Shown here: positions 3,816-57,749 of the stretch, one piece after another | How positions within the stretch are numbered: position 1 is the stretch's first letter | Layout: each line of letters starts with the position of its first letter | Source of the DNA: Octopus vulgaris | Lineage: Eukaryota | Length of the DNA stretch: 64,000 nucleotides | NCBI GenBank assembly: GCA_951406725.2 | Contig: OX597822.1 | Location: forward strand, 69,812,001-69,876,000 | Direction: 5' to 3' | Position numbers and translations under genes: made by a program | Notes under the pieces: model-generated | The model's database searches: none | Seen by the model: the letters and a program-made list of their open reading frames with translations, nothing else | What the model was told of the DNA's origin: nothing

Positions 3816-5024
3816 AAAATAATTTAAAAAAAAAAGATTCAGTAAGACATTTAATTTTTTTCAGCTCTCATGTTAATTCTTTACAGTTTTGTGTGATTTG
3901 TTATAAAAATATTATCAGATTCAATAAGAGGTTTCATCTTTTCCCTTTCCATGTTCATTAATTTTTATCTTTTTATTGAGGGTTAAACAATTTTTTTTTG
4001 TTGAAGGAGATAACCAAAAGTACCGATATTTCTCATAAAAAGTGGCGAGATAACCCAATTTTTTAATGGGGGTGAGATAACCAAAAAGGTACCCATCCTT
4101 CTAGCTAGGTTGGTCATTATAAAAACCGAATTCTGTACACACACACACACACCAGTTATCAGCAAGCAGTGACCAGTTAGACACATAGCTAGAGATGGGC
4201 AAGCAGTGACCGTCGACACAATACCGTAGCAGTTGCATATCACGGACAGACGAGACAGAAAAACAGCACAACCCGACCAAATGACAAACGCACACACAGA
4301 CACATAAGATGTCTTATACTATCTCGTCACATAAACATTCTCTTTCCTCTGTTTTCACTTCGCCGACTCGAAGAAGTTGGTAACTTCATGTAGCAGCATA
4401 TTTATCCGTTTTTTTTTTTTCAAATCAAACTTTCTGTATCCAACACGTAAATGCAACTGTTAACCAAATAAATTATGAAAACTGCATTCCTGTTCTTTGT
4501 CGTGTTTTCCTTTGATGTCGGTCCAACACGCCTATCTTCATCTGTTGCACACGACAACGTACATTGAACCATCAACAACATGACATTTCGCTACACATTC
4601 CGCTACAGTCTTCTTGTTTTCTCTTCTGCTGCCTCAACAAGGTTTGAAAACTGCTAAAGACATGTCATGAAGACATCCCTACAACACCATCAAGTTGAGG
4701 CCCCTAGGCAAAGCATATATATATGTATGTGTGTACGTGTGTAATATATATGTGCATATATATCTTTTATCCTTGTTTCAGTTACTGGACTGTGGTCCAG
4801 CTGAGGCACTGCCTTGAAAGATTTTACTCAAACAAATTAACCCTACCCACCTTTTTTTTTTAAAGTCTAGTACTCGTTCTATTGGTCCTTTTCGTCAAAC
4901 CGCTGGTTTTGGGGACTTAAACCAACACTAATTGACAAGTGCCGTGTGTGAGAGGTCAAACATAGACACGAAGACGCACACAAACAAATAAGATCAAATG
5001 TAATGAATCTTTAGTTAATGTTTG

Positions 5025-5276
5025 GGATCTTTTCCTTTTGAACGGCAGTTTTCAACACAATTTCTAGTTAACTAAACACTATGGACGTATTTGATTGGTT
5101 AAAATTGCCGAAATGCTCGAAATTAAAGTCGAAATATGTTACAACATATAGAATTTTCTCAATAAAGCCAAGAAAAAATGATGTTTTATAAACACATTTT
5201 ACCAGTATACGAAGTTTAAAAGTGTTTAGTTAACTAGAAATTGTGTTGAAAACTACCGTTCAAAAGGAAAAGACCC
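5025..5276. mobile_element. MITE with ~55-bp TIRs and 8-bp TSD (Merlin-like termini)
   Basis: TIR ggatcttttccttttgaacggcagttttcaacacaatttctagttaactaaacact with its inverse at 5221-5276. TSD AATGTTTG at 5017-5024 and 5277-5284. Confidence 0.8.
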
Positions 5277-6040
5277 AATGTTTGTGTGTGTATGCATATA
5301 TGTATGTATGTGGCGGGCTTCCACACAGTTTCTATCTACCAAACTTACTAACAAGGCATTTGTCGACCAAGGGCTATAGTAGCCGACACCTAAGATGCCG
5401 CATAGTGGGGGGATGAACATGAAACAACGTAGTTACAAAGTGAACTGCGTTAATATTTAACTACAGTGGCATCAATTAAAATGATGCATGTTACACACTA
5501 CACTGTGTCACGCTGAATCTGCCTGGACATTTACGTTAAGAGCGTACATGCCTATCAAATGCTCAGCCGTTCACACGTTGATTCAGGAGCAAGTATTTCC
5601 GCTGATCGAACAATACTAACCGCCGAAACAGACAGAGTTCACACACACACAAAATCTCCCATTGATAAATCTTAACCAAATGAAAAACGTTAGCTAATTT
5701 ACAAGCACTAATCCTTAGTCATTAGTGTAATTTTTTCTAGCACGTGTACATAATTTACATTGACACCGGTTCCAGCGCTGCGCATATTTATAACTTCGTA
5801 ACTATTCCCTCGTGGTTTGTGTCTATTAATAAAGTATCACATAGGATAATTATGAATGAAAAAGTAAATTATATTTTATGTATGAAACTTTTTCACTCTA
5901 AACACTATCAAAATAGTTTCTTATGAAACTATTTATTTTGTTTTATAAAATTACCCAGAAGTCCATTTATATATGGCCAGAACCTGCCAGTTGCGACAAG
6001 TTGTGGTAAACTTTTGATTTTATTTCTGTTATCCGACAAC

Positions 6041-7675
6041 ATGGATGGACAGTTCGACGACGCCGTAGATGATACATCAGAGCCTATTCTACAAGAAAAA
6101 TTCGAAAAGGAAGTTTACAGCAGTTCTTCAAGTGAAGAAAATGAAGAGTCTTCAGATGATTACGACGATGATCTGAGTTTTGAATGGACCAACATGTCTG
6201 GAAATTTCACTAAGAGATATAACACTGCCATGTCAGGCGGACCAACGAATTCACATCAAACAGCGTCACAGAGTAAAAATACGAAGGAGTCTTATCAGCC
6301 TCTTGACAAAGTTCTTAAAAATGTTCTTGATTTGAAGATGAAAACCACGAAATACGAAGGTCCATCTAATTGTTTTTTTAGTAAATCGGAAAGGAAAGCC
6401 GAAGCGGAACGCCTTCGAGGAAAAGACAAGTCTGAGCGAGCCACTTCAGAACAAGCTCTTGATCCACGGACTCGGATGATAATTTTTAAATTACTAGGTC
6501 GTGGTGTAATATATAATATCAACGGTTGTATTAGCACTGGCAAGGAGGCCAATGTTTACCATGCCACCGGAAAAGACGATTTTGATATCGCTGTAAAAAT
6601 TTACAAAACTTCGATTTTGGTCTTTAAAGATCGAGACAAATACGTCTCGGGTGAATATAGATTTCGACATGGATATTGCAAACGGAATCCCAGAAAGATG
6701 GTCAAAACATGGGCTGAGAAAGAAATGCGAAATCTCCAAAGAATACATCAGTCTGGTATTTTGTGTCCGAAACCTATTCTGTTACGAAGTCATGTTTTCC
6801 TAATGGAGTTTATCGGAAAAGACGGCTGGCCAGCACCTTTGCTACACGAAGCTGTCTTAACAGAATCAAAAGCTCGTGAGTTGTATCTTGATTGTATTTT
6901 AATGATGAGAACATTGTATCATGAATGTCGGTTAGTTCACGCTGATCTAAGTGAATTCAACATGTTGTTTCACGAAGGGAAAATCTATTTGATCGATGTT
7001 TCTCAATCGGTCGAACACGACCACCCTAACGCATTGTTTTTCTTGCGTAAAGACTGTACAAATGTGACGGACTTTTTCCGTAAACATTCCGTTTGTGGTT
7101 TAACTGTGAAGGAATTATTCGATTTTGTCACTGATTCTTCTATAACAGACACAAACGTGGACGATTATCTAGATAAGGCTATGACCATTACTGCTGGGAG
7201 AACTTTGGAAGAAATTACGCAACAAGACAAAGTAGACGAGGAAGTGTTTAAGAAGATTTTTATCCCAAGAAATCTTGATGAAGTTGTTAATTTTGAACGC
7301 GATATTTTAAATGCTAAGAAAGGAGACACAGAACAGGTGTACTATCAGACAGTTGTTGGTCAAAAACCAGATTTAAGCGGACCACAAAAAGAACCATTAT
7401 TACTTGAGAAACAAAATGATGAAACTGGTTCTGCAGAGGAGTCTGCAGAAAACTCTGACCAAACAGATGATAGCGGACAAGATAGTGATGATGAAAACGA
7501 AGATAGTGGTAAGAACGTTGAAGGAAATATTCACCATAGAGCCAGGAACGAGTCACCCAATAGTCGCAAGAACCGTAAAAAATTAGTGAAAGAAGCTAAA
7601 CAAAAGTCAAGAAGTCAAAAAATCCCAAAGCATGTAAAAAAACGCAAAGAGAAGTTAGCAAAGACAAAACGTTAA
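6041..7675 (+). CDS. RIOK1: Serine/threonine-protein kinase RIO1, single coding exon (544 aa)
   Basis: Uninterrupted ORF from ATG 6041 (MDGQFDDA, matching the conserved GQFDDA N-terminus). RIO1 motifs include [75 protein letters not shown] and [12 protein letters not shown], plus a basic C-tail [12 protein letters not shown]. Confidence 0.97.
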
Positions 7676-10215: not shown

Positions 10216-10299
10216 CAATTGTTCTTCAAGGGCATTAAATCAACTGAATCAAAAGAGTGCTGTCCCTTTATGTTGTGACTTCAAAAACTCAGAAAGTCA

Positions 10300-10497
10300 T
10301 TACGCCAATAACAATACACGCACAGATCAATTACAATTCTTTATTGTTAGTCATTTGGCTAAATATCTAATTAATCGATCGTTAACAAAAGACTGATTGT
10401 TTAACCTGCACAAGCTATCGATTAATTGATTAGATATTTAACTAATTGATTAACAATAAAGAATTCAAATTGATCTGTGCAATTGTTATTGGTGTAA
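10300..10497. repeat. Imperfect fold-back inverted repeat
   Basis: ttacgccaataacaat...gcacagatcaatt...aattctttattgtta...taaatatctaat is mirrored by attagatattta...taacaataaagaatt...aattgatctgtgc.attgttattggtgtaa. Confidence 0.8.
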
Positions 10498-11324
10498 TAA
10501 TTCTCCCAAGGCCCAACAAAATTTATTTCAATACGCGAATACAGATCAAGAATCTTTGAAGCCAAATACAAAAACGAAGTGAATAAGATAGTCAAAGTTA
10601 GAAATTATAATTATTGCTTAATTGAACTATGACATCTATTTGCCAGTTTTTATAAACATTTCTTTTTCTTATGAAGGACATCTTTATGCAAAATGCAGAT
10701 GGAACGTTACACAAACACTCTTAATATCTTAGGCTGGCTTTTGAATCGGAAGTAATTGGCCAAATATACTACCTGTTTGATGCCAACTACAGGGTTAAGA
10801 GCTGATTCAATTATCTAACCGTCTTCATACATTGTGAGCCATTAGAAGGTAGTCTACATGGTTGCTGAACCTGTTGGAAATAGCTGTTGAATCTCCATCA
10901 AATCTTACCCCAACATCTTAAAAAAAAAAGTGATGGTCATGGCTGAAACGCCTTTGATCATAGATCTACTCTATCGGAATTGAGCTGTAGTCATAGCTGA
11001 AACGCCTTTGTTCATAGATCTGCTCTGGGAAATAAACAAGTCTTACTAATTTTTGCAGAAATCCAGCAATTTGAGGGGAAAGATTTGGTTGATTACATCA
11101 ACCCCCAGTACTTTTATTGACCCTGAAAGGATGAAAAGTAAAGTCAGCTTTGATAGAATTTGAACTCAGCATAAAAATCCAGAAGAAATGCTGCTAAGCA
11201 CTTTATTCGACAAGATTCTGCCAGCTTGCTGCATTAAACGGTTTTCAAATTTTCACACAAGATCAGCAATTCCTAGGATAGTGGGACAGTTTATTATATC
11301 AACTCTAGCGTTCAACAAGTACTT

Positions 11325-21728: not shown

Positions 21729-21872
21729 ATTATTATTATTCAGGTCACTATCTGGAATCGAACTCGGAATCTTGGGGCTAGTAGCCCGCGCTCTTAACCA
21801 CTACGCCATATGCCTGTAGTGGTTAAGAGCGCGGGCTACTAACCCCAAGATTCCAAGTTCAATTCCAGGCAG

Positions 21873-21908
<36 letters not shown>

Positions 21909-23670: not shown

Positions 23671-23804
23671 ATTTATGGCTTATTGTTTATATTGTGAATT
23701 ACATAATGGGGGCACCAAAATCTTTTAGATGCTTAGAGCCTCTTTGGATCTTAATCTGTCCCTGGTTGTGAACTTAACAATTTGACAATATTTCTATGAA
23801 TTAC

Positions 23805-26800
23805 TTGTTTTTTGTTTCTTTTCTAAAGAAGACTGTGTGGCTGTGAAGCTAGAAGCTGTTGCAGTTGCCGCTTTTACTCCAAACACATTGTCAGGAATAC
23901 GATTTCGGGTTACTTTTAATTTCATAACAGATTGGTTTGAAGATGATACCAAACCCATATATGGAGGATTTGGTGTGATAAAACCATTAATTGAAGTGAG
24001 AGGCTTTGGAGAAGATACAGTCATTGCCTCACGATTGGAAGAATTATTAGTGAATTGCTGTTGATCTGATATAAATTTTGGTGAGGATATAAATTGGTTT
24101 GATGTAGTGGGCACATTTTGGGTTGTATCACTTTTAAACTGAGGAACAGAGGTATGTAGTGGATGTGTTTTAGTCAGATCCTGGGACCATTTAGAGCTTG
24201 ACACCTGAAGAAGATCAGAAGTTACATTTAACAAAGATTTTTGTGTCAAAGATTTGTTTTGCCCAAAAGTAGGAACATTTTGTAAATGCTTTATTTCTGT
24301 TGATATTGATCTTGGAGAGCTCTCAGTTGAGGCAGAATGTTGAACCTTTCTTTGAGTGATGTTAGGTGTAAATGCTGTTGTAATATTCAGAGTATTAGTT
24401 ATCGAATTATAATTTGTATTTGCATTAATCTCAAGAGGGTTTACTATGGATGTATCATGATTCACCATATAAATAACGTTTTTCTCAGTTATTTTACTAG
24501 TTACAAGCTCTTCCTCAGGAGCAAATGAAGCTAAAACATTAGAATCTAGGGGTTTAATTACATTCAATCTTGTTGCAGTAGAATTTTGTGTAGGGTGAAA
24601 GCTATGTAGTGGTTTAGTATTAGTAACATCCACATTCTGGTTAGTTGTTAATCTGTCAGTGTTGTTTGTGATTATAGATGCTAGTAGTGAGCCTTTCATA
24701 GATTCGGTGACAGTACTGAGTTTCATGGGCTTTTTATAACCCTTTTTGGTAAAAATATAATGAGTGTCATTTCTAATGTTATTGTCAGGTAAAGTTTTAT
24801 TGACAGGAATCTTTACCCAACCAAATCCTGCAGACATAAAAGCAGTTACACCAATATTTTCTTCAGAGTCAGTTGGCTGCTCTTTCTTAATGTTATTGTC
24901 AATCTGAAAATCAGCTTGATGGCCAGCTCTGATGGTCAGATTATCATTATCAGCTTTTACTGTGTTTTTCAATAAATTCAAATCCTGGGACCAAACAGTG
25001 GTATCAGTGTTACTCTCTGTAATAGGTATTGTTGGGGACACAATGCCCTGAGAATGCTGAGGCGGAGGAGGTTCGACTGTTGTGTATGTCCTGTGATAAG
25101 GAGCTGTCACGGTGACAGTATACATTTGTAGAGAAGCATCTTGCTGATTCAAGTCTATGATAGACTTCTGTGTAACAGCAACTAACTGGCCTTTAACTGT
25201 AGTGAATTCATGTAATGTAACACCACTTAGCTGGTCCCTATTTCCAGTTGGCTGTGTGCTACCAACATCTTGTTTAGCCCAATCTCTGTTGAGCTGAGAT
25301 ATATCAACAACGTGCTGGTTCACATTTGTGGTAGGCTTCTGTGCTGTATCAATACCTTGTTGGTCCCTGTTTCTAGTTGATTGGGGTGTGTCAACATTTT
25401 GTTGAGCCCTGTCTCTGTTTGATTGGAGAATACCAACAATTTGCTGGTTCCAGTTTGTAGTAGGCTTCTGTGATGTAATAATGCCTTGCTGGTCCCTATT
25501 TCTGTCTGACTCTGATATAACAACAGCTTGTAGTATTCTGTTTGTAGTAGATGCTTGTAATGCAATAAAATCTTGCTGGCTTCTTTTTGTGGTTACCTTC
25601 TGTAAAATAACAGGTTGTTGGTCCCTGTTTGGGGAGGACCTACTTGTTGTATCAATGTAATCACTTTTATTTAAATATTTGTTGGTCAAAGGAGTTATTG
25701 AAACATCTTGCATGAAAAGGGATTCATCTGTTGATTTGAGGCCTATATTTCTCATATGAGTATGATTTTGTGTTAAATTTCCTTTTCCCATTCCTGGGGC
25801 CTTTGGCCTGTCATTGGTAGTAGAAGTGACCATAGAAGAGAGTATATCTTTAAAAGGGTTAGTGGTTGAGTCTGAATTTGAGATTATAGCATTAGGATGA
25901 TCCTGACTTAATCCACTGGCTATGTGTACTTTTTCAGTCTCTAGCTGATTCCTAGTTACATTAGGGGAAGAAGAAAGCAGATACAAATCTGAAACAATGG
26001 CTTTATTCCCAGATTCTGAACCAGGTTGTGATGTTCTAATAGTTGTTTCATCAAAGGTGTCAACTGGAAGCTTCAGTGTAGAGTTGTTGTCTCCCATAAT
26101 AATATCTGATAACATGTCAGTTACATTTCTTTGACTATTGGTAACAACTGGAATATTCTTGATATCTGAATTAAGATTCCTCTGTTTTCCTATATAATCT
26201 TTGTAGCTACTCTTATCAGTTTTAACAGGTATAAGCGTACTCTTGAATATGTTACTGTCATTCTTTTCAGAAAGATCAAATGGATTATTTGTAATCTCCA
26301 CTAGATTATTGGATCCTCGCAAAGGATTATCTTTATTCATGTCAGTGTTTGCCATATAATTTTGAACTGTTACAGATTCGTTGGAATTTATAATCCCAAA
26401 TTCTGCTGGCAGTTCTTTATGAGAATTTTGTTGTTTATGCTTAATATTCATGTTTATGCTTGATGAATTTCGTTTGCTTTGTGCAGAACCTCTTGTTAAA
26501 TACTGAAAAGGAATGGCCAACCAACCAGAACCAGAAGGTTTTATGTTAATACCAGTTTTTACATTGATTGATTCATGCGAATTGTTCTCTTGCTTAGTCC
26601 TGAGATCAATGTTATTTTCTCTATGTGGGGTCAATGTAGTTATGGACAAGTTCACTTGTGTGATTTCAGATTGATTATTGTGACCTTTGCCAACATCTAG
26701 GCCAGTAATGTCCTCACTGATATTTCTCGTTAGATTTGTAAAGATATCAGAACTTTTCTCAACTGGAGTTTTGTTGTGGAGAAAATTAAAAACATCACTT

Positions 26801-27113
26801 AATTCTTTTGAGTGTTGAAGATCAAACGATTTGCTTGTGATTGCTGTAAGGAATCTATAACCCCAAACTCCTGTATAACTTGTCCAGCTGGGTGTAGTAA
26901 CAGCAGCTTTAAGTGAATTTTCTTGTCTCTTTATGGAATCATGAATTATACCTGTTTCTGTATTAGCATCAGTTATCATTTCAGTACTGACCATTGTCAC
27001 AGAACTGGTTTGATCAGTAACATTTTTATTGGTACTTAATTGTAGATGGTAATTCCAAGTGGTATTTTCATCGACATCATTTGGTACGGCAAATTCCAAG
27101 TGATTATCTGTCT
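23805..27113 (-). CDS. TM-SEA-mucin gene, coding exon 6: 3309-nt S/T/N-rich mucin-like exon
   Basis: Open frame of about 1100 aa with acceptor tttttatgtttcag at 27114 (phase 1, matching the upstream donor). Likely donor AA|gtaatt at 23804, or read-through to TAG at 23794. Many N-x-S/T sequons. Confidence 0.85.
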
Positions 27114-27449
27114 CTGAAACATAAAAATTTGATTTTTTTTTTTTAAGCTTCATAACTAACACAAGAAAATAAGAAATTGTGACTTTCATCTTTTACACAT
27201 GACAGAATAAATACTTGCTGCATATCAAAATTCTACTTGATTAGAATTGATCTGAGACTATACAACAAGGAAGAAGATTAAAATGATAAACAAAAGACTT
27301 TGTGTGTGTGTGATGCCATTTTATGTACAATCTAAATTACTCAGGCATAGTACCTTGGCTTAGTGCTATCTCAAACCAAGCAACGTCTTCAGAGTAGAAA
27401 TGGGTGACAGAAATTGCATGAAAGCCTATGATTTGTATGTGTGTGTATA

Positions 27450-27576
27450 CAGGGTGATTCAAAAGTCACCATCCATAGGAAAAATTTATTTTTTCATAAG
27501 AAACAGTTAAATAAAAAAACTGTTTCTTATAAAAAAAAAAATTATTCTTATGTATGGCGACTTTTGAATCACTCTG
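27450..27576. mobile_element. Tc1/mariner MITE
   Basis: TA|cagggtgattcaaaagtcacc ... ggcgacttttgaatcactctg|TA. Confidence 0.8.
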
Positions 27577-27900
27577 TAGTAAGGAATTATTATTCCAAAC
27601 ATTTACCAGTTTGGTCTCAGATATTCAAAATAGGTTATTCAATGGTTAATATATAAATCCAATAATATTCTTATAAGATAAGAATTTAGAGATATATTCC
27701 GTTGGATAATTCAGAATATATTACCTTAACCATATAGGTTTCCTGGAGTATCAACAATAATAATAAGAATTATTACAATAGACTGATAGAATAAGTACTA
27801 GGCTTACAAAGAATAAGTCCTGGGGTCAATTTGTTTGACCAAAAGCAGTGCTCCAGCATGGCTGCTGTCAAATGACTGAAACAAGTAAAAAAATAAAAGA

Positions 27901-28130
27901 ATACAGCTTTACATAGGTCCACATATATTTCAACTGCACCAATTAGTGTCCTTTGCAATTGCAACCCTTCTATAATACTGGTGCAGTTTCTTCAGGGTCT
28001 TTACTTAACATCCTTCAATTTAACTGTTTGAAATTTTCTGTTTATCTACTCTGTGTATTATAGTAGGGTTGCAATTGCAACGGTTACTAATTAGTACAGT
28101 TGAAATGTGTAGGTCTATGTAAAGCTGTAT
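27901..28130. repeat. Fold-back inverted repeat (~75-bp arms) next to (TA)n
   Basis: atacagctttacatagg...ttgcaattgcaaccct pairs with agggttgcaattgcaa...ctatgtaaagctgtat. The minus strand near the apex has acc-CTGAAGA...tatag(t)a-gggt hammerhead remnants. Confidence 0.8.
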
Positions 28131-32654: not shown

Positions 32655-33424
32655 TATCTCACCAAACAGATAATAACACCTTACATAGATGAAGACCTTC
32701 TTTAGCCTGGGGTGCTGGTATTTCTCCTTTCCCTACCCACTGTCTTTGGTGCTTGACATTTTTATAGGGAATCCATTTCTTGTCACCAGTCACTATTCCA
32801 TCCAAAAAAGGTTCATTCATGAGATGTGACAGCCAAAAAGAGCATACATTCACTCTCTGCATGTGAATATACTTGGAAAGTTTGCGAGGAACCCATTGAC
32901 CCAGTTTACTGACTTTACCAATGGCATGCAGGTGTCACTGAATGATTGAATGACCAAATCCAAGCTTCTTTGCTAGTTCCTCAATAGTTATGATGGGATT
33001 TTGTTCCACCAGGGTTTGCAGGACGTCCTTGGCAAGCTCAACAGATCTTCCAGGAAAAGGCTCGTCTTCTAAGTCTATAGTTTCTGGCTTGGAATTTCTG
33101 GAACCACCATTGACACTGGCTTACATTTATTGTCCAGTCCCCATATACTGCATTAATATTCCTCACACTTTCCATTGTGTTGGTGTCTTTATTGAACTCA
33201 AAAAGCAATATATACCAAACATGCTCCTTTGTCACTTCTATTATAGCTTTGAAAAAATAACTGTTAAAATCCAACCGCACTCTTCAAAACTTTCACTAAG
33301 AATAAATACAAGGTAAAATTTCTACCTGCTTTTATAGCAAGTTAATGCAGGTAGTTTATCCCATCCCCTCCGTCTTTTAGTTCATGCAATTGAAAAAACC
33401 ACATTATTTATGGGATGACTCAAT
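32655..33424 (-). mobile_element. mariner (DD34D) element, 5' part, disrupted
   Basis: TIR-like ttgagtcatcccataaataatgtgg. Contains HTH region EVTKEHVWYILLFEFNK...RNINAVYGD and catalytic FLDGIVTGDKKWIPYKN. Confidence 0.85.
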
Positions 33425-36879: not shown

Positions 36880-37870
36880 TTATTTTAGGAGGTGGTAACC
36901 ACAAGACACACACCAGGCATTCCATTCATTTCTCAGCACAAAGAGGCAAGCCCTGTTCTATGCTTGGGTCAAATCATAGAATGCAACCCCCAATATCAGC
37001 AGAAGGGCCCAAGAGCATATGCTGGTTTAACCCTGGATCTGCTGCTTATCACTTCTGCCTTCATCACCCTCCTTACCATCCACTCCTCATCCATCCTCTC
37101 CATGTGGCCAAACCACATCAACATTTGTCTATCCATTTTCATTGTTTGTTTTTCTCTCATCCCTGCTCGCCTTTGTGCCTCCTCATTCCTCATCCTGTCC
37201 ATCCATGTCAAACCAACCATAGCCCTCAAACATCTCATCCCAAACACATCTAGTCACCTCCTCTTCACCTCTCTCAGCCCCCACATCTCTGCAACGTATA
37301 ACATTGATGGCACAATCACACCCTCATACACACCTCTTTTCGCTTTCATACTCAACCTTTTATCTCTCAGCATACCTTTCACAACTCCAAGTATCTTACT
37401 CCCCTCCTTCATTCTATATCCCACTTCCTCCCCATCTGCTGTCATATGTGACCCTAGATACTTAAAGTCACTCACCTCCTCTAATATCTCACCATTTAAA
37501 CCCACATCCATCCTACCAGCCATTCCATCTCTCAAACATTTCATCACCTTACATTCACTTTCAGTTTCCTACTCTCACACACTCTTCTAAACTCTACCAC
37601 CAGTCTCTTCAGTTGTTCTTCTGAATCCGCCACCAGTGCTGTATCATCAGCAAATAACAATTGTCTCACCTGCCATTTCTCTCCATTTTCTCCCACCATT
37701 TGAGCTCCCCTACCAAAAGTTCTAGCATTTACCTCTCTCACCACACCATCCATATATAAATTAAACAGCCACAGAGACATCACACAACCTTGTCTTTACC
37801 CCACCTTCACATCAAACCACTCATTTACTTCACCACTCACCCTAACGCACGCCCTACTTTCTCTATAAAG
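36880..37870 (-). mobile_element. RTE-clade LINE 3' fragment, second family
   Basis: Contains RQGCVMSLWLFNLYMDGVVREVNAR, QLLFADDTALVADSEEQL, LEEVSDFKYLGS and WFGHMERM, with frameshifts. Confidence 0.92.
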
Positions 37871-38483: not shown

Positions 38484-38526
<43 letters not shown>

Positions 38527-38530
<4 letters not shown>

Positions 38531-38648
38531 TAATTTAAGGTATCTAAGAGATACCACCACGCTGGAAATAGCAGCCAAAACTTAGAGTCAAGTTTTGGCT
38601 GCTATTTCCAGCGTGGTAGTATCTCTTAGATACCCTAAATTATAATTT
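38527..38648. repeat. Near-perfect ~120-bp hairpin within TA tracts
   Basis: attataatttaaggtatctaagagataccaccacgctggaaatagcagccaaaactt-(agagtc)-aagttttggctgctatttccagcgtggtagtatctcttagataccctaaattataat. Confidence 0.9.
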
Positions 38649-38830
38649 TAATAATAATTATTACCTTTCAAGGTTTTTATTCCCATGCTGGCCACCTGAT
38701 AAGATCGGTATTTAAATAACGATCTTATTCTTATTTATATATGTATGTATGTATATATATATATATATATATAATATAGAAATATTGAGTTTCTAAATCT
38801 CTCGTAGAGAGGTGTAAGGTGGTGGAGCGA

Positions 38831-39227
38831 TATAATGGTTGTATACTGTCAATCTAACAAGAACGTGACAGTAGGGGGTACACCACCGTTATATAGCCCT
38901 AGGAGGCATCAAACGCCTCCTGACAGCTTCGACACATTTTATCCTGTGTCCTTATATACACATACGAAGGGGAGACAAACACCCCCAACCGCCGGAACTG
39001 CATCTAGGGACACCGTGTTTCAGGATGAAGGACAATGATCCTGAAACACGGTGTCCCTAGATGCAGTTCCGGCAGTTGGGGGTGTTTGTCTCCCCTTCGT
39101 ATGTGTATATAAGGACACAGGATAAAATGTGTTGAAGCTGTCAGGAGGCGTTCGATGCCTCCTAGGGCTATATAACGGTGGTGTACCCCCTACTGTCATG
39201 TTCTTGTTAGATTGACAGTATACAACC

Positions 39228-39233
<6 letters not shown>
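38831..39233. repeat. ~400-bp near-perfect palindrome with hammerhead 3' half at the apex
   Basis: Arms are 38831-39026 and 39038-39233, with about four mismatches seen, all transitions at CpG. The apex reads GATGA-AGGA-caatga-TCCT-GAAAC-ACGGT-GTC-CCTAG. Confidence 0.93.
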
Positions 39234-39272
<39 letters not shown>

Positions 39273-39315
39273 ATATATATATTTCATTTTGAATTTGTGT
39301 GAATGAGTATAGAAT

Positions 39316-39577
39316 AATATATCAGTTGAATAAAGTTAAAACATGGTCTGGTTTTCAAGTTTTTTGCTATGGTATTTTAACATTAAAAAAAAATATTTTG
39401 AAATGCTCATAAAGTTAAATTAGCGCTTTCGTACATTTGAAATCTGATGATTACTCTATGTATGAAAGCACTAATTTAACTTTATAGGCATTAAAAACTT
39501 TTTTTTTTAATGTTAAAATACCATAATAAAAAACATGAAAACCAGACCATGTTTTAACTTTATTCAAATGATATATA
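39316..39577 (+). repeat. Fold-back inverted repeat (~120-bp arms) with a minimal hammerhead at the apex
   Basis: Apex 39440-39477 reads AAAT-CTGATGA-TTAC-TCTAT-GTAT-GAAA-GCAC-TA-ATTT. The inverted arm preserves GTAC-GAAA-GCGC-TA-ATTT. Confidence 0.85.
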
Positions 39578-53641: not shown

Positions 53642-53816
53642 TTAAGAAACACACAAAAGCCGTTCGATTCACTTCAACATTTAAGTTTAATTTGTCAAAA
53701 TATTTTCATCGCTAAAATCCACGACGTGTCAGGTCGCGGATTTTAGCGACGAAAATATTTTGACAAATTAAACTTAAATGTTGAAGTGAATTGAACGGCT
53801 TTTGTGTGTTTCTTAA
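53642..53816. repeat. Near-perfect ~175-bp hairpin
   Basis: ttaagaaacacacaaaagccgttc...tcgctaaaatccacgac-(gtgtcag)-gtcgcggattttagcga...gaacggcttttgtgtgtttcttaa. A single-arm relative lies at 12240-12330. Confidence 0.92.
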
Positions 53817-54636: not shown

Positions 54637-57480
54637 TTGTGACACACTGACTGAGTTATATTGCAAATATGGCTAGACTTGGAAATGTTAGTCATAATGT
54701 AGAAACACACGAATCAGGTCTTAAACCAGCTAAAATATCATTATTTGATTATACAATCATTATTGATGATCATTACAAAGTATTTTCTTGCTCTTCCTGA
54801 CAGAGTTAAATATCTACATTAAATAAATAATAAATGCGCCCTTTTAAAGCCTAGCCAGGCTCATGGGCCTGGTTTCCCATTTTCAATGGTGTATGCGTTC
54901 TCCAGCTGGATGGGACGCCAGGCCATCTCAGCGTTACTCATTTTTGCCAGCTGAGTGGACTGGAGCAACGTGAAATGAAGTGTTTTGCTCAAGAACACAA
55001 TGCGTCGCCCAGTCCAGGAATCGAAACCACAATCTTACTATCATGATGCTGACACCCTAACCACTAAGTCACACGCCTCCACAAATATCTACATTACTTG
55101 TAAAAATTCAGGATTTCATTTTTCAAGAAACAACAATAATACACGATATGTAGTTTGTATATAATACTCTTAACATGATAGAGTGCAATCATTTATGTTT
55201 TAATCATTCAATTCATCACCAGCAGCATTTAATATTTATGTTCTATGCAAATATGGGTTGGACAGTTTGTCAGGATCCAATGGGCCCAAGGACTGCATTG
55301 CACTCCAGTGTCCAGTTTGGTATGGTTTCTATAACTGGATGCGCTTCCCAAGGCCATTCATCTTACAGCATGTGCTGGGTACTTTATCTGTGCCACCAGC
55401 ACCAGTGAGGATATGAAACAGCTTGCAAGACTACAAATCACAAGAAGAGGTAACTTTATGCAAGGAGATAAGGACTAGAGCAGGCTAAAGTATGAGAGAA
55501 AAGGGCCTGAGCAGAATGGGTTTCATTTCCATTTGTTAATCTTGAATCCTGTTTAACCACACCATAATGCTGAGAAGCAATGGAAACATAAAATATGGAA
55601 TAAAAGAATATGGAATACATTGAGGTTTGTTAGGCATAACTCACTGAGTCAAGAGGAAAATGTTTTGCAAATACAATTATTATATCTTTGTGTGAAAACA
55701 TCTAAACTGTCTCAAATTTATACATGAAAATTGTATTTCATAAATAAAAGATGAACTTGAATATTTTTTATGATAAATAAATATATATTTCAGATTTGTT
55801 TTATTTTCATTTATTTTGTTTCCTTTGGAAATGTCGAGTAATTCTGAAAAAGCAATATAACAATGCCAACTAATTTTTTTAAAAATTAAAAGAATTTCAT
55901 AAAATTCCAAAAATAGATCATCATTCAAATATATCTCAAGTGGCTAATTGAATGGAATTCCACAGTTAACTAACTTCATTGAATGTTCACAATATAAGGT
56001 CAAAAGCCTGGATACAAGCTAGTGAAATGGAAGTTTAAGTGCTTGAAGAATCAATAATTATCCAAGCACAAATTTTAATTAAAATACAACTATGCAAGAC
56101 ATTTGATTAAATTCAGTAAAATATTAAATATATACTTTAAATTTTGAATACTCAAAATTCTAATTTTTACAGGAAATAAATTTCAGAAAAAAGTCTTCAC
56201 TTTATATCATTAAACCCATAATTCAAAGGTGGTTCATTGGTGGAATCGTTAGCAAGTCGGACTAAATGTTTCGCGGTATTTCTTCAAGCTTTACTTTTCT
56301 GCATTAGAATTCCGCAATCGACTTTTCCTTTTATCCTTTTGAGGGTTGGTAACCAGTCGAGAACAGAAAAAATTTCAGACTTTGTGCCTATAGTAGAAAG
56401 AATTTTAAATCCACGAACTGCATGTAGAACCTATAAAAGTGTTAAACATTTAAAAAATGTCCTGTTGAGAAAATATTAAAAAATAAGTCAACAACCTGTC
56501 ATTTTCAGATCCTGTACTACGAAATAATAAACTGCAGTGATTAGTCACAAATATCTACAAACATTATTCTCTCTCTCTTATTTTCTTAGTTGTTTCAGTT
56601 ATTTGAATGTGGCCATGTTGGAGCACCGCCTTTAATCGAGCAAATCGACCCCAGAGCTTATTCTTTGTAAGCCTAGTACTTATTCTATCGGTCTCTTTTT
56701 CTGAACTGCTAAGTTACGAGGATGTAAACACACAAGCATCAGTTGTCAAGCGATGATGAGGGGACAAATACATACACACACATACATATATATGTATATA
56801 TACATATACGATGGGCATATTCCAGTTTCTGTCTACCAAATCCACTCACAAGGCTTTGGTCGGCCTGAGGCTATAGTAGAAGACACTTGCCAAAAGTGCC
56901 ACGCAGTAGGACTGAACCCAGGACCATGCGGTTGGTAAGCAAGCTACTTACCACACAGCCACTCCTACGCCTATAGCTACTTACCAAACAGCCACTCCTG
57001 CACCTTGGAACTATACATAATTCTATTGTTAACACATGAGTAATTTTTTAAAAAAGAAAATCGTTCTTTCAAATTGAAGGTGTAGTGACATATTTCAATA
57101 GATTTCTGTGTTGTTGGGAAGGTTATTCCTGAGTTTTTATTCAGTAACATAATCAGTAACCAAAGTATAACTACTTTAATCCTGTTTTCTCCAGTTTTGG
57201 CCTGTTTCCAGGATCTGTGAACTTTGACCCAGTGTCTAAACTGAATACAGATATGCAAAGACATGAGATATATTACACCATATCTGGTGATGGACGCAAT
57301 CAAAAAGAGAAAGGGTAATGCTGAGGAAAACTGGCAAAGGGGCCAGTTTCATGGCCTTGACATGACCTTAACTTCTGAACCTTGTACTCTTTGGTCAATA
57401 ACATCACACACACACAATGTGTGTGTGTGTATATATAACAATACTGTTGTAAGTTGTAAGGTACCGCATGAGTGGAATTA

Positions 57481-57718
57481 TATATAAAAGAAGGTTTGAA
57501 AATGCAATTTTAAAAGATGTTTTCCCAAGATTTTTCCTTGTAAACTGTTTTTAACAAGTTATTATTATCAAAGAATGTATATATGTATTGTAATATTTTG
57601 TGACAACCAGTACTTAACACAATAAAGCTTTTACATGTTACTTTTGACAATCTTTTTCTAAAAAAGTGAAACCGGTCAAGTGAATAAACATCTTTTAAAA
57701 TTGCATTTTCAAACCTTC

Positions 57719-57727
<9 letters not shown>
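57481..57727 (+). repeat. Inverted-repeat element (~40-bp arms) with a degenerate hammerhead
   Basis: aaagaaggtttgaaaatgcaattttaaaagatgttt with its inverse at 57686-57721. Positions 57640-57681 read ACTT-TTGACAA-TCTTTT-tcta-AAAAGT-GAAAC-CG-GTC-AAGT. Confidence 0.75.

Positions 57728-57749
<22 letters not shown>

Follow-up and report, generated by a model that had tools for sequence, protein, structure and literature searches.

Two 5′-truncated copies of an octopus repeat joined head to head within a hammerhead motif, a probable trace of Penelope-like element insertion

Penelope-like elements (PLEs) leave characteristic marks at their insertion sites: inverted 5′-truncated copies, a tail of 30–40 bp on one side only and partial tandems (PMC8557442, PMC3846280, PMC8969392). 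In Adineta vaga the elements Pen2, Pen2a and Pen3a include an inverted 5′-truncated copy joined at the 5′ end (PMC3846280; scheme in the legend of Fig. 2 of PMC8557442), and palindromes at PLE junctions were interpreted as self-priming (Arkhipova et al. 2013, PMC3846280). The Poseidon element PAc of Anolis carolinensis cuts and extends both strands, two start sites bound its tail, and PAc with a dead hammerhead inserts equally well (PMC11167929). PLE hammerheads typically have a palindromic helix III (PMC4209133); this helix has 4 bp closed by one nucleotide in 17 of the 26 Hydra-clade rows in File S2 of PMC8557442, and most Hydra-clade elements in Files S1 and S2 of that paper are listed with (TA)n targets. 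Pairs of hammerheads on opposite strands, 100–700 bp apart, occur in Schistosoma (PMC4209133; PMC7229834; bioRxiv 10.64898/2026.07.22.740005). PLEs make up 6.83% of the Octopus vulgaris genome in 190 families (PMC13282606), and the octopus family described below may already sit in an existing repeat library.

We analysed a window of 64,000 nucleotides from contig OX597822.1 of O. vulgaris, in which the original prediction had reported a palindrome of about 400 bp. The palindrome is real. Its inverted arms, at 38830–39026 and 39038–39234, are 197 nt each, 98% complementary, and lie around a spacer of 11 nt. The left copy (38830–39026, reverse strand) is the 3′ end of an element, 5′-truncated at element position 15–17 in loop II/stem II, and the right copy (39024–39234, forward strand) is a 211-nt piece of the same 3′ end and has no tail. 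Of the two copies, only the right one, which is longer, contains the spacer (39027–39037, forward strand). The left arm extends 57 nt further than had been seen (38773–38829), up to its (TA)n flank; the right arm abuts (TA)n directly. Including this one-sided tail, the whole locus measures 462 nt. Both flanks, at 38736–38772 and 39235–39281, are (TA)n/(TATG)n microsatellite, the left one being the likely insertion target as judged from its sequence; (TA)n, an AT-rich microsatellite target, lies on both sides of the locus. No target-site duplication is readable at the flanks. A second copy of the arm was not found elsewhere in the 64-kb window. The locus is best described as two 5′-truncated copies of the terminal part of a high-copy repeat of octopus, joined head to head. 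Within the arm, a TATA-like box on the forward strand (39106–39111) is a candidate for a pLTR promoter, and the 3′ part (39130–39234, forward strand) is predicted to form hairpins (z −3.9).

The two copies are joined by the 3-nt microhomology GAT/ATC at 39024–39026, as had been proposed; these three letters are assignable to either copy, and family homology stops at 39024. A microhomology of this length arises easily by chance, with 171 options in the 211-nt element. The axis of the palindrome differs from that of the hammerhead stem II at its apex. Palindrome pairing joins element positions 1–3 with 15–17 and stem II joins 6–9 with 16–19, giving pair sums of 18 versus 25 for the two registers.

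The apex has the shape of a hammerhead. A truncated type I motif on the forward strand (39024–39060) was recognized by its sequence pattern, and its layout was compared with File S2 of PMC8557442. It contains, in order, GATGA (39024–39028), corresponding to core positions G5–A9; a 4-bp stem II, AGGA/TCCT (39029–39032 and 39039–39042); GAAA (39043–39046); helix III, ACAC-G-GTGT in a 4-1-4 layout (39046–39054); C at 39055, after which the cut is predicted; and CCTAG (39056–39060), the predicted 3′ strand of stem I. Helix II, GAAA, helix III and an NUH cut site thus occur in the correct order at 39029–39055, and the locus copy lacks the complete core C3-U4-G5-A6-N7-G8-A9 with helix I. The prediction that the upstream CT and stem I had been replaced by the inverted arm holds: the left arm stands in place of C3, U4 and the 5′ strand of stem I. 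Because these parts are missing, the stub is predicted to be unable to cleave. A relaxed truncated-hammerhead pattern was matched by 26 of 200,000 simulated random hairpin apexes (∼1.3 × 10⁻⁴), and in a scan of the whole window the apex motif was the sole match. Rfam returned nothing at gathering score for the locus; the 27 weak matches by E-value were generic hairpins, with no hammerhead family among them. The exact pattern was also sought in viral, metagenome and prokaryote collections, with 0 matches.

To characterize the repeat family, contigs of 4 of 24 listed runs were placed on 39004–39246 (243 bases). The stretch is present in 20 of the 24 listed runs, which carry 3 organism labels and come from 9 studies, with word shares of 0.27–0.56. 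The surveyed runs are assembled contigs, possibly of different species, with a word share of at most 0.56. Since 1203, 891, 86 and 49 contigs in the four runs matched the 243-base region, with many variants, the arm belongs to a large, heterogeneous, high-copy repeat family. Depth was 0 at 39004–39021 in all four runs and coverage began in the bin 39022–39030, the spacer being covered in all 4 runs. The family therefore includes the spacer but does not run on into the left arm. In three listed contigs (two from X1, one from X3) the match goes to precisely 39024, and 5, 2 and 36 letters are left unmatched; their other ends are at 39126, 39107 and 39114. Because those other ends fall at expected 31-letter variant breaks, we infer that the leftover letters lie upstream of 39024, where they are unlike the left arm. 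With this orientation the three contigs bear out the expectation that other letters of the family precede 39024; in the alternative orientation they begin at 39024 and mark the same boundary. No loose end at 39024 was found among the 24 of 138 loose ends listed. Non-inverted copies of the family presumably carry an intact hammerhead.

No matched contig in the four runs follows the left arm past 39024, and therefore the junction is not family-wide, with the proviso that contigs may drop single-copy or rare forms. Among the listed contig joints there were no strand changes, so other inverted copies were not seen. Both arms carry minority family states at 39076, 39077, 39123, 39173 and 39175, and these five common states point to one source for both arms. 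At 39024–39066 substitutions were listed at 0 of 43 positions, compared with 18 of 168 downstream (p = 0.014), a difference that edge effects may inflate. A family variant with a 1-nt deletion at 39050 makes helix III a perfect palindrome; its share of the depth is 0.08% in X1, and 15%, 29% and 31% in the other three runs. A subfamily parts from the rest after 39185 in X3 and X11. An apparent second junction pile-up, of X11 and X7 contigs starting at 39038, was rejected, as 31-letter contig breaks at variants near 39069 explain it. We also dismissed a truncation gradient as the meaning of the tenfold greater depth at 39184–39228, since summed contig depth is not copy number.

The tail of the left copy (38773–38829, reverse strand) is likewise family sequence; the adjoining TA run makes its outer limit indistinct. 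An X11 contig continues 55 letters past the equivalent of 39234, and 29 of the 30 letters shown match the first bases of the tail, a match to the family that covers 30 of the 57 nt. Eight X1 contigs have a related, shorter extension whose consensus parts from the tail of the window after ∼17 nt. One X3 contig, a single record, leads from 39230 via such a short tail back to 39078 in a 5′-truncated next copy, apparently a partial tandem. At least three different 3′ ends seem to occur in the family, with no tail, with ∼17 nt and with up to 57 nt, and each of them finishes in a TA-like motif; three TA-ending start sites may be used to produce them. The tail resembles that of PLEs in lying on one side only and in consisting of element sequence, although at 57 nt it is longer than the published 30–40 bp.

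We compared the locus with the described systems. [quoted passage not shown] It differs from them in having no ORF and no readable target-site duplication, and in that its join cuts through the hammerhead motif (PMC3846280). With Hydra-clade PLEs it shares the 4-1-4 helix III, a (TA)n target and a hammerhead near the 3′ end (PMC8557442). This likeness is confined to the hammerhead layout and the target, and elements outside Hydra may have the same layout. The mechanism described for PAc fits the locus in its two reverse transcription starts bounding the tail, its use of both strands, its AT-rich target and its use of uncleaved RNA as template (PMC11167929). In PAc the ORF starts in stem II of the hammerhead (PMC11167929), whereas the matching sense frame of the locus has three stops and searches with it found no protein relatives. 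A short palindromic helix III, thought to need a dimer, is common to the locus and to minimal metazoan PLE hammerheads and retrozymes; unlike those, the motif here is truncated and single, with no tandem array (PMC4209133; PMC7229834). Its first stem II pair is A-U, compared with the usual G-C of minimal type I hammerheads (PMC4209133). Among titles and the starts of abstracts, mostly from outside subscription journals, we found no report of a PLE junction inside a hammerhead. The architecture as such is already described for PLEs, and the locus is a clean example of it, not a new system.

The one-sided tail, the 5′ truncation, the apparent partial tandem and the (TA)n target are PLE insertion marks, and we regard the repeat family as very probably a PLE, likely an endonuclease-bearing one. 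Against this identity, searches found no reverse transcriptase or GIY-YIG ORF at the locus or linked to the family, and Pfam gave no match to either arm frame. The antisense arm is open for ∼69 codons from an ATG (frames of the window at 38835–39040 on the forward strand and 39020–39229 on the reverse strand); a word-index protein search with this 69-aa frame returned no candidates of similar length. The sense arm frame, which contains three stops, was read through with X and gave 123 word-index candidates, none significant. The sole HMMER match of the arm translations was to a tandem-repetitive junk protein and was dismissed as an artefact. Two published elements were considered as the parent and set aside, in both cases by motif: Naiad_Ovul (‘HHR_half_core’), since the motifs of the locus family were not found in the part of the PMC8557442 supplement searched, and Hydra-1_Obim of Octopus bimaculoides, whose listed hammerhead sequence differs from the locus motif (PMC8557442).

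How the two copies came to be joined is constrained by the tail and by the join itself. We believe that two cDNAs were probably primed on opposite strands of the (TA)n site from uncleaved RNA and joined by GAT/ATC, and that the two-copy locus is likely the product of one insertion event. A PLE enzyme would nick both strands of the (TA)n run. Reverse transcription would then proceed on each strand, a distal start leaving the 57-nt tail and a proximal start leaving none. Both cDNAs would pass the predicted cut site and stop 15–18 and 29–32 nt upstream of it, the one with the tail end reaching position 15–17 and the one with the proximal end reaching position 1. Their 3′ ends, GAT and ATC, could then anneal, followed by fill-in. 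As both copies extend past the predicted cut after 39055, the template would have been uncleaved or religated there. This scheme was built from the observed pieces and fits them by construction; its actual test is the failure of simple alternatives. The first of these is fold-back of a single cDNA at GAT/ATC. It reproduces the apex and gives 405 nt without a tail or 519 nt with two tails, and since the locus has a tail on the left only, simple fold-back was rejected.

Self-priming within the same PLE family avoids that objection if an antisense strand, either template or cDNA, that terminates at 39024 folds by GAT/ATC and is extended, one tail being trimmed afterwards. The minus strand does read as a full antisense copy folded at GAT/ATC, matching at 401 of 405 letters; both arms would come from one source, as their common states suggest; and junction palindromes were so interpreted in PMC3846280. 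Yet the left-only tail demands the extra trimming step, and for the antisense DNA end the prediction is a stem II fold, which would tie up GAT, and not a 3-bp stem with an 11-nt loop. We regard self-priming as unlikely, though it is the strongest of the competing accounts. A non-autonomous SINE- or retrozyme-like hammerhead family outside coding PLEs, or a later inversion or repair at the DNA level that duplicated a single copy, appears quite improbable. No link to an ORF was found, and animal retrozymes do have type I hammerheads and are proposed to be PLE derivatives (bioRxiv 10.64898/2026.07.22.740005). Against a non-autonomous family stand the marks of PLE insertion, namely the one-sided tail, 5′ truncation, apparent partial tandem and (TA)n target; against a retrozyme, the absence from the window of tandem 150–400 bp units with intact hammerheads, there being one truncated motif and no other copy of the arm; and a duplication at the DNA level would need loss of the tail on one side.

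The original prediction had explained the palindrome by fold-back priming at the hammerhead stem II. Stem II does lie at the apex, and the antisense end is predicted to fold through it, but the register differs, as the pair sums of 18 and 25 attest, and this model calls for a 6-nt loop, a length of 398 nt and a different apex instead of the observed 11-nt spacer and 462 nt, and leaves the tail unaccounted for; for this copy that part of the prediction is abandoned, and we give it very little credence. Equally slight is the likelihood of a MITE, a palindrome with terminal inverted repeats of 197 bp whose centre resembles a hammerhead by chance, for although about ten other fold-back repeats occur in the window, several of them (TA)n-flanked, none of the contigs in the four runs leads from the apex on into the left arm despite the great depth of the arm, an apex common to the family would not be rare in contigs, the ends are asymmetric, and the motif arises by chance in only ∼1.3 × 10⁻⁴ of hairpins.

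The two arms differ at exactly four sites, 38865/39199, 38911/39153, 38931/39133 and 38990/39074. As had been predicted, all four differences are transitions, C to T or G to A, at CpG. By position alone the chance of an all-CpG pattern is 5 × 10⁻⁵ (18 CpG bases of 197), and 0 of the 179 non-CpG sites differ between the arms (95% upper bound 1.7%). The family has C at 39133 (≥99%) and at 39199 (≥99.9%), and therefore the right arm was mutated at both; at 38911 the mutation was likely in the left arm, since the family has no listed variant at 39153. The family itself is mixed at 39074 (32–48% G), and the direction of change is not polarisable there. The four transitions would have followed the insertion, likely by deamination of methyl-C. 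The original description of the insertion as young and methylated fits the CpG-only differences, with qualifications on both counts: ‘young’ is relative and homogenisation of the arms would mimic it, and methylation is what the CpG-only change would imply. Octopus transposons are mostly poorly methylated; O. bimaculoides shows low levels on them and high levels in some gene bodies (PMC9476566). Because of this, and because the local CpG observed/expected ratio is 0.28, the methylation may stem from the region and not from the element. We searched for an upstream exon that would place the locus in an intron and found none.

By itself the locus is ordinary transposon debris, and its worth lies in the clean record of an insertion. 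Its one-sided tail and 3-nt join speak against a simple fold-back and agree with two cDNAs primed independently, as would be predicted from the work on PAc in vitro, and the passage of both copies through the predicted cut site fits insertion from uncleaved RNA. As a tentative extension, which we hold to be doubtful at present, the folded uncleaved hammerhead could halt or delimit reverse transcription, in which case truncation and inversion junctions would cluster within ∼35 nt upstream of the cut. If this were true, the ribozyme fold would shape the ends of insertions without cutting, which bears on what PLE hammerheads are for. One junction does not show clustering; the family is large, and should junctions throughout it cluster at the hammerhead, the octopus genome would provide a large sample for the role of PLE hammerheads.

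Other features of the window were also recorded. The MITE-like fold-back repeats lie at 428–721, 836–1064, 5022–5278, 10299–10498, 27448–27578, 27901–28130, 38523–38650, 39317–39576, 53642–53816 and 57479–57729. The hammerhead pattern was found in none of these roughly ten repeats, several of which are (TA)n-flanked. In the repeat at 53642–53816, 3 of the 4 arm differences are CpG transitions. At 21729–21889 two short tRNA-like repeats with (AAT)n tails lie head to head; they are 90% identical and one is 5′-truncated. The pair looks like a SINE, in an inverted layout similar to that of the hammerhead locus. ARAGORN reported no tRNA in this repeat, which presumably resembles A and B boxes. An uninterrupted RIO1 kinase ORF of 544 aa (Pfam RIO1) occupies 6041–7675 on the forward strand; it shares a 90% cluster with RIO1 of O. 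bimaculoides and is distinct in sequence. On the reverse strand, a 1132-codon open frame at 23794–27192 is rich in Ser, Thr and Asn, has no Pfam match and is probably a large mucin-like exon. The same strand carries a mariner transposase fragment at 32900–33250 (Pfam HTH_48) and a decayed reverse-transcriptase fragment at 36999–37795 (Pfam RVT_1).
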